Source: Candidatus Adlerbacteria bacterium (lineage in GTDB: Bacteria; Patescibacteriota; Minisyncoccia; Phycocordibacterales; SBAW01). Taken from it: a stretch of DNA of 64,000 nt. This document shows positions 41,050 through 43,965 of this stretch, one piece after another. The notes below the pieces were generated by a model, which was not told the DNA's origin, searched no databases, and saw only the letters and a list, made by a program, of their open reading frames with translations. The position numbers and the translations under genes were made by a program. The stretch covers positions 47,854 to 111,853 of the forward strand of contig CAINNF010000019.1 of the NCBI GenBank assembly GCA_903851045.1, in the 5' to 3' direction. The stretch's first letter is position 1. Each line of letters begins with the position of its first letter.

Positions 41050-42365
41050 TGGCGCGTCCCATCTCGTTCACGATAGAAAAACAACACCCCCGTTCGCAGG
41101 CGCGAGCGGGCGTTTTGAAGACGCGTCATGGCGAAGTGCGGACACCTGCGTTCGTTTCGGTCGCGACCAAGGCGACCGTAAAGGGGATCCAGCCGGATAT
41201 TCTGGCGGATCTTGGTGTGCAATGCATCATCGCCAACACGTATCATCTTTATCTTTCGCCGGGCGAAGACTTGGTTGAGAAGGCAGGCGGTGTCAACACG
41301 TTCATGCACTGGGATAAGCCATCGATGACCGACTCGGGCGGCTTCCAAGTCTTTTCGCTTGGAGAAGGGTATGGGAAGAAGGTGTCGAAGGTGGGGCCAG
41401 CCAGCGCAGGGTCGCCTTCTGCAGCCTCAGTGGCATCATCTTTCTCCGCTGGGCCCGTTGTTGACGCTACGAAAGACGATGCCACTGAGGCTGCTCGTAC
41501 CGCTGCCGTCTACGACGAAGACTTGGCGACCAGTCACGGCAAGCTCGCTATCGTCGATGAAGAAGGGGTGACCTTCACTTCGCACAACGATGGCACCTTG
41601 CATCGCTTCACACCGGAGCGCTCCATCGAGATACAGCACAAGCTCGGCGCGGACATCATCTACGCGTTCGACGAATGTACGTCGCCGACCGCTGAGTATG
41701 CCTACCAAAAAGAGGCCATGGATAGGACGCACCGATGGGCACTGCGCAGCCTCAAGGCGCATCGACAAAATATTTCAAAAAATGAGGCGCAGGCGCTCTA
41801 CGGCATCGTGCAGGGCGGCCGCTTTAAAGACTTGCGGCTGGAAAGCGCGAAGACGATCGCATCGATGGACTTTGACGGCTACGGTATCGGCGGGTCGTTC
41901 AGTAAAGATGATATCTTGGGCATACTCGACAAAGTGAACAGCGAACTCCCGCAGGAGAAGCCGCGTCACCTGTTGGGTATTGCCGAACCCGAAGATCTTT
42001 TCCTCGGTGTCGCTGCAGGTGCGGACACCTTCGACTGCGTACTCCCGACACGCAACGGCCGCACGGGCGGCGTCTACTCGCATGATGGGAAGTATATTAT
42101 CGAGAACGCACGCTTCAAAGACGACTTCTCGCCACTGGACCACGAATGTGGCTGCCCCGTTTGTTTATCGTATACAAAAGCATACATTCACCACCTCTTC
42201 CGCACCAAAGAGATGCTCGGCATGATCCTCCTCTCCCAACACAACATCTACTTCTTGGCGAACCTCACCGAAAGAATCCGCCAATCCATCTTAGATGATC
42301 AGTTCGAACACTTTCGCGACTCTTTTTTGGGTAGGTACTCTACTAACGCAGTCAGACTACGTTAG
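41049..42365 (+). CDS. tgt: Queuine tRNA-ribosyltransferase with ~50-aa low-complexity insertion; C-terminus extended by an embedded REP
   Basis: Conserved Tgt blocks ([38 protein letters not shown], Zn site CGCPVCLSY...H). Ala/Ser-rich insertion between VFSL and EEGVTF; the last residues STNAVRLR are the translation of REP-B. Confidence 0.85.
41425..41490 (-). repeat. Intragenic 66-nt palindromic element inside tgt (20-nt inverted arms plus 26-nt core), minus orientation
   Basis: Reverse complement reads CCTCAGTGGCATCGTCTTTC-GTAGCGTCAACAACGGGCCCAGCGGA-GAAAGATGATGCCACTGAGG. The core is 26/26 identical to uvrB 45385-45410. Confidence 0.8.
42344..42365. repeat. REP family B palindrome CTAACGCAGTCAGACTACGTTAG (overlaps the tgt stop)
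   Basis: 11-bp arms with one mismatch; further copies at 42807, 42846 and, inverted, at 43563. Confidence 0.8.
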
Positions 42366-42430
42366 TTGCACAACACACGAAAGTGTTGTATATGTTTCAT
42401 AGACTTATCCCTAAAAAGTGAGGACGCAAC

Positions 42431-42754
42431 GTGTCTGAGTCCGAATCCTTTCAGATGACATTACTGTCTCCCGAGGCTGATACTGCGCTGAAGGAGCTTT
42501 TAAAGGAGTACCCTGGGGTGCTCTTGCAACACCGGTGTTGCCTGCTTTTTGCAAATGCCGCAGAGCCGGCAAGGATTCTTATGCAAGATCATCCTCCGGA
42601 AGTGCGCGAAGCGATCGATTCTGTCATCGCTATCGCGAAGCGATACGCACGGGCGGTGCGCGAGACTGCCACACTGCCGCCGCAGACGCAAGCGACCATC
42701 TTGGTCGGACTGCTCCTGAATCGTAGCGCACTCATGCTTATCAATGAAGAGTAG
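42431..42754 (+). CDS. Hypothetical protein (107 aa)
   Basis: GTG start with GTGAGGA RBS; followed by a terminator. Confidence 0.45.
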   Translation: MSESESFQMTLLSPEADTALKELLKEYPGVLLQHRCCLLFANAAEPARILMQDHPPEVREAIDSVIAIAKRYARAVRETATLPPQTQATILVGLLLNRSALMLINEE

Positions 42755-42762
42755 AGGCGATG

Positions 42763-42795
42763 GGGCGGCGCGCAGCGATGCAGCCGCCCTTTTTC
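42763..42795 (+). terminator. Rho-independent terminator (GGGCGGC...GCCGCCC plus TTTTT)
   Basis: Its 3' 25 nt gcagccgccctttttcatatttg are repeated exactly at 43923-43947. Confidence 0.7.
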
Positions 42796-42806
42796 ATATT
42801 TGAATA

Positions 42807-42829
42807 CTAACGCAGTCAGACTACGTTAG
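42807..42829. repeat. REP family B, forward copy
   Basis: ctaacgcagtcagactacgttag, identical to 42344-42365. Confidence 0.8.
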
Positions 42830-42845
42830 TTTGAGTAATGACTAG

Positions 42846-42867
42846 CCAACGCAGTCTGACTGCGTTA
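42846..42867. repeat. REP family B variant (perfect palindrome AACGCAGTCTGACTGCGTT), inverted orientation
   Basis: 20 nt downstream of the previous copy, forming a REP doublet upstream of RAYT-2. Confidence 0.7.
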
Positions 42868-42878
42868 TATTTCCGCGC

Positions 42879-43562
42879 ATGAGGGTAGAGCCGTACTCGA
42901 TAGGATCATATTTACATATAGTCAAACGCGGAGCTCGCGGTATGGCTATTGTCGGTAATGATGCGGACCGTTGGCGCTTTTTGAAATTATTGTTGTATAT
43001 GAATGACGTCTATTTGGACGAAAACTGGGAGCAGACGGTCGGCACCATGGGCTTTCTTGAGCGCCCTGATTTTTGGCCCGAGCGCGAACCGTTAGTACAC
43101 ATCCTTGCGTTCACACTTATGACAAACCACTTGCACCTGCTCGTAAAAGAAATTCGGCAAGGGGGAGTCTCTCTTTTTATGAAAAGACTCGGGCAGAGTA
43201 TGACGAACCATCACAATGGAAAGCATAAGCAGAGTGGAAGTTTATTTCAGGGATCGTTTCGTAGCAAGACCATCGATTCGGATGAGTATCTTCGATATGT
43301 AGCTGCATACGTGATGGTAAAAAATACATTCGAATTATTCTCAAACATTGATTTTGCAAAAAATATTTACGATTTCGAATCAGCGTGGGAGTGGGCGACA
43401 ACTTACCCATTTTCGAGCTTAGGAGAGTACGCAAACATACGAACTCATCCAATTGTGGAAAAAGATGTTTTGGGCGAGATTTACACTGACCCAATAATCT
43501 TCAAAAGCTTCTCCAAAGAGGTCCTCCTCGGGGGTGAGTGGAAGCAGTTCGAGTTTGAATAA
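42879..43562 (+). CDS. REP-associated tyrosine transposase (RAYT), copy 2
   Basis: YHIVKRG...AFTLMTNHLHLLV (HuH)...GSLFQGSFRSK...YVAAYVMVKN; paralog of 19143-19823; flanked by inverted REP-B copies. Confidence 0.75.
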   Translation: MRVEPYSIGSYLHIVKRGARGMAIVGNDADRWRFLKLLLYMNDVYLDENWEQTVGTMGFLERPDFWPEREPLVHILAFTLMTNHLHLLVKEIRQGGVSLFMKRLGQSMTNHHNGKHKQSGSLFQGSFRSKTIDSDEYLRYVAAYVMVKNTFELFSNIDFAKNIYDFESAWEWATTYPFSSLGEYANIRTHPIVEKDVLGEIYTDPIIFKSFSKEVLLGGEWKQFEFE

Positions 43563-43585
43563 ACTAACGTAGTCTGACTGCGTTA
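43563..43585. repeat. REP family B, reverse-complement copy immediately after the RAYT-2 stop
   Basis: ctaacgtagtctgactgcgttag is the exact reverse complement of the 42807 copy. Confidence 0.8.
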
Positions 43586-43671
43586 GTGACAAAGACTTGC
43601 GATAATTGTCAAATTGTGAAAACTTATGGCACAGGAGCACGATGGTTGTGTTTGGTGAAAGGGGATAAGAA

Positions 43672-43905
43672 ATGGGTGGCACTCGGACTGGTTCAAGAGG
43701 TCAGCGCCAGGTATTGGTAAACACGACTCCAAGCGGAGAAGGTTATCAAACCCGACCAACAATGAGATGGGTCGATGCAGATGAGGCAGAGGCAGCGGAG
43801 AGGAGTGGTCGTACACCCAGAGGAGTAGAGGATGGATGCTGCAAGACGTGTGGCTGGCATCTAGGCGGAGAAAACTACTGCGAACGTTGCATGGGCGTCG
43901 GATAA
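43672..43905 (+). CDS. Small Cys-rich (zinc-ribbon-like) hypothetical protein
   Basis: CCKTCGWHLGGENYCERC; AAAGGGG RBS. Confidence 0.4.
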   Translation: MGGTRTGSRGQRQVLVNTTPSGEGYQTRPTMRWVDADEAEAAERSGRTPRGVEDGCCKTCGWHLGGENYCERCMGVG

Positions 43906-43910
43906 GTGCG

Positions 43911-43940
43911 GGGGCGGTTGTTACGGCAGCCGCCCTTTTT
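43911..43940 (+). terminator. Rho-independent terminator sharing its 3' 25 nt with the 42763 terminator
   Basis: GGGCGGttgttacggcaGCCGCCC plus TTTTT. Confidence 0.7.
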
Positions 43941-43965
43941 CATATTTGGCCATATCTGGTAGAGT

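Follow-up and report, generated by a model that had tools for sequence, protein, structure and literature searches.

A REP-flanked tyrosine transposase of an Adlerbacteria genome, in a terminator-bounded block that is absent from a close relative

We analyzed a 64,000-nucleotide stretch of the genome of Candidatus Adlerbacteria bacterium (GenBank assembly GCA_903851045.1, contig CAINNF010000019.1), referred to below as the window, in which a gene for a REP-associated tyrosine transposase (RAYT), named RAYT2, is bordered by inverted copies of a repetitive extragenic palindrome (REP), named REP-B. The locus probably represents a REPtron, with RAYT2 placed between its cognate inverted REPs, residing in a DNA block that would have been brought in by recombination at a transcription terminator. 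Elements of this kind are already known; what is added here is a pair of filled and empty sites for a RAYT block, and the architecture of a REP in a bacterium of the candidate phyla radiation (CPR). RAYTs are usually described as immobile, single-copy genes that are inherited vertically and visibly do no more than spread REPs, and it is rare to have both filled and empty sites for a RAYT gene itself. A single genome pair appears to record two events: the REPtron block was gained (less likely lost), with its junctions kept to the base, and a REP overwrote the end of the tgt gene.

Organization of the RAYT2 locus and its empty site

The RAYT2 gene (42879-43562, + strand) encodes an intact HUH/Y1 transposase of 227 amino acids (aa). 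The 23-nucleotide (nt) palindrome REP-B, CTAACGCAGTCAGACTACGTTAG, occurs in exact form on the + strand at positions 42343-42365 and 42807-42829, while its exact reverse complement (43564-43586) begins one base past the RAYT2 stop codon and a variant with three mismatches is located at 42846-42868. All of these copies had been listed in the original prediction, two of them with coordinates off by one (42344 and 43563). REP-B gave seven strand-matches in the window, compared with none expected from 100 shuffles. Identity between the two exact + strand copies extends over 27 nt (42341-42367 and 42805-42831). On either side of the RAYT2 gene, the arms (42806-42832 and 43561-43587) also measure 27 nt and are inverted and 100% complementary, in agreement with the REP/RAYT arrangement proposed originally, with inverted REPs flanking the gene.

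Upstream of RAYT2, copy 2 (42807-42829) and the variant copy 3 (42846-42868) constitute a REPIN-like doublet (42802-42873, + strand), which folds into one long hairpin (−20.2 kcal/mol, z = −7.1). The lone copies form hairpins of −6 to −8 kcal/mol (z = −3 to −4.5), with values of −6.1 kcal/mol (z = −3.1) for copy 1 (42341-42367, + strand) and −8.0 kcal/mol (z = −4.5) for copy 4 (43561-43587, − strand), the exact inverse of copies 1 and 2. The segment lying between the REPs of the doublet (42828-42845, AGTTTGAGTAATGA) was considered as a relic of the 3′ end of a RAYT gene (..FE*), but this idea was dropped, as 18 nt are too short to support it. A sigma-70-like promoter match overlapping the proximal REP (42843-42871) is not claimed as a promoter, since such matches are just as numerous in this region as expected by chance.

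Copy 1 overlaps the 3′ end of tgt (41049-42365, + strand), which encodes a queuine tRNA-ribosyltransferase of 438 aa (Pfam TGT, E = 1.3e-135). The REP-B 23-mer provides two bases of the T432 codon, codons N433-R438 and the TAG stop codon of this gene. The stop codon is therefore part of the REP, as had been proposed, together with six to seven codons rather than the eight originally counted. In 11 homologues the Tgt protein ends 2-5 residues past the invariant Y430. The closest of the homologues, P0121 (encoded by contigs L103/L104 and 87% identical by BLASTP, or 90% in a MAFFT alignment), terminates with GRYLRK, whereas the window protein adds STNAVRLR after Y430; the window end is encoded by the REP, and the orthologous L103 DNA at the tgt end contains no REP, from which it follows that the REP supplies the stop codon. 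The spacer downstream of tgt has diverged since, so that the exact edges of the REP insertion cannot be drawn. Of the REP-B copies, only this one lies outside the block described below; it matches the distal 5′ REP exactly over 27 nt, suggesting that it was copied recently.

The L103/L104 contigs share the gene order of the window (PMSR, VKOR, CAP, FKBP, tgt, ORF107 and, 75 nt later, uvrB), and they lack a RAYT gene. Comparison by blastn and alignment revealed that a block of 1,146 bp (42803-43948, + strand; its register is ambiguous within a 23-nt repeat) is present in the window and absent from these contigs. Positions 40556-42802 of the window correspond to L103 5407-7686 and positions 43926-44664 to L103 7664-8401, so that the L103 segment 7664-7686 matches both copies of the repeat. 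The gene on the left, ORF107 (42431-42754, + strand), is a conserved hypothetical gene that predates the insertion: its product is 81% identical (aa) to that of the syntenic 107-aa gene of L103/L104 and matches no Pfam or NCBIfam family. On the right, the 34 nt up to and including the start codon of uvrB (43972-46257, + strand) match L103 without a difference and thereby locate the right junction.

The repeat, GCAGCCGCCCTTTTTCATATTTG, is located at 42780-42802 and 43926-43948, i.e. 1,146 nt apart (none expected by chance), and forms the 3′ halves and tails of two terminators. The identical segment measures 23 nt and not the 25 nt reported originally, and the block of approx. 1.15 kb bracketed by direct repeats was recovered as predicted. 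Terminator T1 of ORF107 (42763-42802, + strand; −12.3 kcal/mol) has a left arm and loop (GGGGCGGCGCGCAGCGAT) identical to those of the single L103 terminator, and these differ from the left arm and loop (GGGGGCGGTTGTTACG) of terminator T2 (43911-43948, + strand; −9.8 kcal/mol), whose left arm forms 10 bp with the beginning of the 23-mer. In a three-way alignment, L103 consists of the T1 left arm and loop, one 23-mer (with a single G/A difference) and the uvrB leader. The junction in the empty site reads T1 left arm, 23-mer and GCCATATCTGG, while that of a hypothetical circle would read T2 left arm, 23-mer and AATACTAACG. L103/L104 carry the repeat once, exactly at the junction; a relative without the RAYT and with a single copy of the repeat is what the original prediction had suggested looking for.

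That prediction had also attributed the arrangement to insertion or duplication by recombination at the terminator. Of this, the presence/absence polymorphism bounded by a direct repeat stands, but the block is not a plain target duplication, because the left arm and loop of T2 differ from those of T1. Nor is it the product of REP-bounded transposition: although the left edge lies 3-4 nt from the foot of a REP, the right edge is found 338 nt past the 3′ REP, inside the terminator. Around 14 other RAYT loci we found no direct-repeat brackets outside the REPs, and therefore the duplication of the terminator is specific to the window locus and not a trait of the family.

Three more distant relatives (contigs L105, L106/L107 and L108) also lack RAYT, spacer, ORF77 (see below) and REP-B. 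Within this clade, the tgt-uvrB spacer varies: it measures 32 nt in L105 (5243-5273) and approx. 600 nt, with an unrelated 62-aa ORF, in L106/L107 (L106 5267-5870), and L108 (5243-6912) has a GerE-family regulator and an ORF of 107 aa at this place, next to uvrB and uvrA genes that look fragmented.

The part of the block between REP-B copy 4 and the right repeat (43588-43925; 338 nt) is a spacer that contains the T2 left arm and loop (43911-43925) and an open frame of 77 aa (ORF77, 43672-43905). The latter had been counted originally as a small ORF belonging to the block. It is probably not a gene, judging from its GC content by codon position (0.59/0.62/0.45, versus 0.57-0.64/0.41-0.43/0.60-0.71 in neighbouring host genes), and it is not called in any source assembly. 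A protein homologue search gave no match and tblastn against all fetched loci gave none outside the source, and for this reason ORF77 was rejected as a cargo gene; it should not be treated as a gene in annotation. Rfam searches over 42200-44100 returned only a chance miRNA match (20.6 bits, against a gathering score of 85).

RAYT2 and its hairpins in Patescibacteria

RAYT2 matches the Pfam family Y1_Tnp (29.5 bits, cutoff 23). In an alignment of 24 members of its subfamily, residues H13, R17, G18, N83, H84, H86, Y144 and N149 are invariant, and the HUH stretch of RAYT2 reads N83-H84-L85-H86. Comparison of the profile of this alignment with TnpA of ISDra2 placed H84/H86 on the HUH motif and Y144 on the catalytic Y132, the residue mutated in PDB entry 2XO6 ('Y132F'). 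For the AlphaFold2 model of RAYT2 (pLDDT 82, pTM 0.83), the best fold match in PDB was 4ER8 (E = 3.1e-5, 203 columns), which is the E. coli TnpA-REP bound to a REP hairpin, followed by the transposases of IS608, ISDra2 and IS200 (E = 2e-4 to 1e-3). The expectation that this protein would carry the HUH and tyrosine residues was thereby borne out. The profile and fold searches were needed, as phmmer with the single RAYT2 protein against PDB sequences returned noise only.

At least 598 homologues of RAYT2 were found at E ≤ 1e-5, and nearly all of the 120 listed were full-length (approx. 225-230 aa). The few homologues that carry an organism name are all labelled Patescibacteria or Kaiserbacteria, and the metagenome-assembled genomes (MAGs) that carry relatives 61% identical to RAYT2 are Patescibacteria. 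The protein is thus a member of a large subfamily that has so far been encountered in Patescibacteria (CPR) alone, and in which a helical C-terminal region of approx. 80 aa is conserved. Patescibacteria/CPR genomes were not included in two broad RAYT surveys (PMC6006769, PMC5581495), and a full-text literature search retrieved no description of RAYTs in Patescibacteria; the present data place a large uncharacterised RAYT subfamily in these streamlined genomes.

In the public source assemblies (L018-L022) the gene starts at M22, giving a 206-aa protein (P0001) that is 21 codons too short (42879-42941). Homologues align from M1 of the 227-aa form, with conservation of MRVEP...H13..R17-G18. An exact look-up of the 227-aa protein gave no match, while the 206-aa form led to the source contigs, all of which are identical to the window and hence provide no comparison.

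The composition of RAYT2 appears foreign to the host, with a GC content of 41-48% compared with 55-60% in the flanks and a GC content at third codon positions (GC3) of 0.50 compared with 0.66-0.71 in host genes, and this favours a gain of the block. In the approx. 81 kb of source genome covered (the window plus 17 kb of extensions), RAYT2 is present in one copy. The other Y1 gene of this region, RAYT1, is 30% identical to RAYT2 and has a different REP. It is part of a second REPtron (19118-19971), in which RAYT1 itself (19143-19862, − strand) contains the canonical YIHLNP and the REP AGCAAGGCGACGCCTTGCT occurs at 19118, 19830 (variant) and 19953, as a doublet on the 5′ side and a single copy directly after the stop codon.

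The core of REP-B (AACGYAGTCWGACTRCGTT, a 19-nt degenerate pattern) was scanned over 185,579 species genomes (596 Gb). The core was found in 17 loci, almost all of them in MAGs of Nomurabacteria, Adlerbacteria and Saccharibacteria. Since the naive expectation over 596 Gb is also approx. 17 sites, the total count means little, and the signal lies instead in the clustering within CPR, the repetition within single MAGs of approx. 1 Mb, the extended palindromic flanks and the adjacency to RAYT genes. The 2-5 cores per related MAG exceed chance for a 1-Mb genome; one Nomurabacteria MAG has five exact cores, three of them far from a RAYT gene. Across the loci the palindrome is usually extended to AAACT...AGTTT. 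One match (L015, Oscillospiraceae), which lies inside an ORF and lacks such flanks, is probably due to chance.

Three of the loci (L005, L008 and L016, from MAGs of Adlerbacteria and Nomurabacteria) encode RAYTs with 61-62% identity to RAYT2, with the same REP core alongside. In the two complete ones, L008 and L016, a REP is present on each side of the RAYT gene, and the opposite centre bases show that the two REPs are inverted. No REP-B core was found in viral contigs. Among the 80 metagenome RAYT loci, the palindrome has a relative (differing by two mismatches) in L024 only and is missing from the other 79, because these loci carry other REPs.

The flanks of further subfamily loci were searched for palindromes without any sequence requirement. 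All members at least 49% identical to RAYT2 and with readable flanks have hairpins 0-25 nt from the start and stop codons, which share the centre AGTC-W-GACT and vary in their outer stems by lineage. In a set of 30 distinct hairpins, 86.7% of the cells pair (27-41% in slid controls), 75 cells have changed on both sides (12-22 in the controls), and the covariation score is 0.596 (0.13 or less in the controls). These hairpins were chosen by the central box, and so the invariance of the box is partly a matter of construction, which is not the case for the covariation of the stem. Homologues approx. 30% identical have entirely different flanking palindromes of their own.

The fifth base pair is a mispair in 14 of the 30 hairpins (T.G in nine and C.A in five, the latter being T.G on the opposite strand). 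The E. coli TnpA-REP needs a bulge in the hairpin for binding (PMC3479197), and the recurrent mispair is reminiscent of it; by this analogy it would mark strand polarity. Co-evolution of hairpin and protein is expected of a REPtron (PMC8266576), and the differences between the stems of individual lineages, with pairing kept, fit such co-evolution, as do the unrelated palindromes of the distant homologues. This simple and testable architecture (AGTC-W-GACT box, T.G mispair and covarying stem) makes the system a convenient model for the reading of hairpins by HUH enzymes.

REP doublets are also present in L025, L111 and L113, and we saw no dispersal of doublets as units. Single REP-B copies in Nomurabacteria and Adlerbacteria MAGs (L001 1017, L006 1654, L012 5766, L014 3863 and others) lie 4-30 nt past stop codons, often between convergent genes. 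When extended to AAAACT...AGTTTT, such singletons could act as bidirectional terminators, and a secondary role in termination is plausible.

Origin of the locus and competing explanations

The comparators for a REPtron were TnpA-REP/RAYT genes flanked by REPs or BIMEs, namely E. coli YafM (4ER8), the RAYTs of Pseudomonas and Stenotrophomonas, TnpAY1 class 2 of Quentin et al. 2018 (PMC6006769) and the data of Bertels et al. 2017 (PMC5581495). The window locus is best filed with REPtrons (TnpA-REP/RAYT and REPs). As in these systems, an HUH motif and a single catalytic tyrosine are carried on a Y1 fold, and the gene is bracketed by short inverted palindromes, including a folding doublet that resembles a REPIN. 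Likewise, a recurrent mispair makes the palindromes imperfect, and they covary with the protein lineage; the palindrome also occurs away from the gene, and two different RAYTs, each with a REP of its own, are present in one genome.

Several observations weigh against this assignment or set the locus apart. The only NCBIfam match of RAYT2, the equivalog NF047646 (REP_Tyr_transpos), was scored at 29.5 bits, far under the cutoff of 80, and so RAYT2 is a relative that falls outside the curated equivalog. Its tyrosine motif, Y-[IV]-M-V-K-N, lacks the Asn-Pro of the Y-I-x-x-N-P of the described classes, and the subfamily has F-Q where these have W-Q/W-E (PMC6006769, Table 1). In addition, the host is a patescibacterium and the protein, at 227 aa, includes the helical C-terminal region. 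In known REPtrons, a GT[AG]G tetranucleotide 5′ of the hairpin foot guides cleavage (PMC3479197, PMC8266576). No conserved GT[AG]G precedes the foot at the loci that we inspected: the foot is flanked by (A)AACT and AGTT(T), which lengthen the palindrome, GTAG occurs only within the stem of T-variants, and it is the AGTC-W-GACT box that stands by the loop. The 2-5 REPs per related MAG are far below the tens to hundreds of classical REPs. In the source genome itself, all four REP-B copies are located within 1.25 kb, none was detected outside 42343-43586 in the approx. 81 kb covered, and dispersal is represented by the one copy in tgt, 440 nt away.

By analogy with the E. coli TnpA-REP and with TnpA of the IS200/IS605 family, RAYT2 would bind the folded, single-stranded REP hairpin. 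Specificity for sequence and strand may be conferred by the loop-proximal AGTC-W-GACT box together with the T.G/C.A mispair at the fifth pair. The enzyme would then cut and rejoin single-stranded DNA using Y144 and a metal site formed by H84/H86, thereby copying REPs to new sites, and one such copy would have landed on the 3′ end of tgt, replacing its last codons and giving it a new stop codon. As regards the block, a terminator sharing its 3′ half with the resident terminator of ORF107 was most likely present on the donor molecule, and the two would have recombined within the common 23 nt, either by a Campbell-type single crossover of a circular molecule or by a template switch. The outcome is neutral for the neighbours, with ORF107 retaining a full terminator and uvrB its leader.

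Features of a Campbell-type integration (or deletion) at short direct repeats, such as attL/attR-like cores or the short homologies used in RecA-dependent recombination, are recognizable at the locus: the 23 nt flank the block in identical copies and occur once in the empty site, and the difference between the sequences adjoining the two repeats (the T2 left arm on the right) is that of a crossover within a segment shared by two otherwise different molecules. In contrast to such systems, the block contains no integrase and neither a donor nor a circular form was observed. Homologue and DNA searches with the spacer and the T2 left arm gave no donor (including a blastn comparison of the spacer with the window and every locus), which also counts against the proposed origin of the block. 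A length of 23 nt is at the lower limit for homologous recombination.

The same picture at the empty site would result if the cassette were ancestral and had been deleted from L103 through recombination of two similar terminators that were already in place, with no insertion in the window lineage. A deletion between the 23-nt repeats yields exactly the L103 structure (T1 left arm, one 23-mer and uvrB leader), and the tgt-uvrB spacer varies among the relatives, so that the direction of the event is unprovable from this site, which weakens the case for a gain. We nevertheless regard such a loss as improbable. Four sampled relatives (L103/L104, L105, L106/L107 and L108) lack the block, and the composition of RAYT2 is unlike that of the host. 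Moreover, the window carries two 23-mers of identical sequence, one base away from that of L103 (A in both, G in L103), in surroundings where window and L103 share only 77-88% identity; had these been old paralogous repeats, divergence between them would be expected. Taken together, these observations favour a gain in the window lineage, and the identity of the 23-mers, which share the A, argues for a recent event.

A different interpretation holds that the whole unit is not a domesticated RAYT but an autonomous, mobile and horizontally spreading insertion sequence (IS) of the IS200 type, with the block as its transposition product. RAYT2 shares its catalytic core with the IS200/IS605 transposases (IS608, ISDra2, IS200), and, as there, subterminal hairpins lie beside its gene. 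The absence of the block from a close relative, the atypical GC and GC3 values, the occurrence of homologues with the same REP in unrelated gene contexts and in different CPR classes, the presence of near-identical REPs beside RAYTs only 61% identical, and a left block edge 3-4 nt from a REP foot are all in accordance with such an element. It is unlikely, however, that this is the correct reading. The polymorphic block is not bounded by hairpins on its right side, where it ends in the terminator, and it is delimited by a 23-nt direct repeat, whereas IS200/IS605 transposition makes no duplication (PMC6006769). Moreover, the flanking hairpins are inverted and not co-oriented, the 81 kb contain the gene only once (the sole other Y1 gene being the distant RAYT1), tnpB is missing, the protein is approx. 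80 aa longer, and the 14 other RAYT loci searched showed no direct-repeat bracket outside their REPs. For these reasons (inverted hairpins, no extra copies in the region covered, no tnpB and the direct-repeat bracket), the locus is not classed as an IS200/IS605 element.

It could also be argued that the hairpins are not substrates of the enzyme but ordinary regulatory or terminator hairpins serving termination or mRNA stability. The location of singletons just past stop codons in other MAGs, often between convergent genes, the T-run on both strands of the AAAACT...AGTTTT form and the low copy number speak for this. What makes it very unlikely as a full explanation is that the same hairpin family occurs, inverted, on both sides of the RAYT gene in every complete locus of the subfamily, that the outer stem changes along with the RAYT lineage, and that an exact 27-nt copy is found inside the end of tgt and not in the relative. 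The two roles are compatible, since E. coli REPs have both (PMC3479197).

A bolder version of the proposed REPtron origin is that the REP-RAYT-REP unit of CPR bacteria is still mobile and spreads horizontally, entering at intrinsic-terminator hairpins by a hairpin-directed mechanism that duplicates the 3′ half of the terminator. If so, the 23-nt repeat would be a signature of that mechanism rather than of generic recombination, and REP copies landing on gene ends would rewrite the C-termini of proteins. We consider this quite doubtful.

Other repeats and mobile elements in the window

Approximately 8 kb downstream of the block, a large serine recombinase is encoded on the − strand (52046-53686; Resolvase and Zn_ribbon_recom in the source annotation), followed by Type I restriction-modification genes (55176-59580). 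This region may be an integrated element. The recombinase was considered as the integrase of the RAYT2 block and rejected, as large serine recombinases leave only a 2-nt common core.

Another direct-repeat pair at terminators is located at 9656-9700 and 10847-10891 (45 nt, 91% identical; GGCCCCGTCGACGTCGACGGGGCC followed by a T-run). It brackets an ORF (9805-10854) encoding 349 aa with no Pfam family, which may have been inserted at, or duplicated with, the terminator. An ORF of 1,171 aa (14701-18216) contains diverged tandem repeats of 126 nt and approx. 294 nt (families D1, D2 and D4) and probably encodes a repetitive surface protein.

Long palindromic elements were also found in frame within housekeeping genes, namely tgt (41421-41494), uvrB (44690-44764 and 45361-45434, with a further element at 45444-45516) and uvrC (49720-49787). 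They share a centre of approx. 26 nt, TCCGCTGGG(C/A)CCGTT(G/C)TT(G/T)ACGCT(A/G)C, and have arms of 21-28 nt that are complementary within a copy and differ between copies. The two resulting insertions in UvrB (31 and approx. 50 aa) are missing from the L103 and L105 orthologues, while tgt of L103 contains a related element. Found in a CPR genome, these elements are similar to the palindromic elements of Rickettsia, and their novelty may exceed that of the REP/RAYT locus itself.

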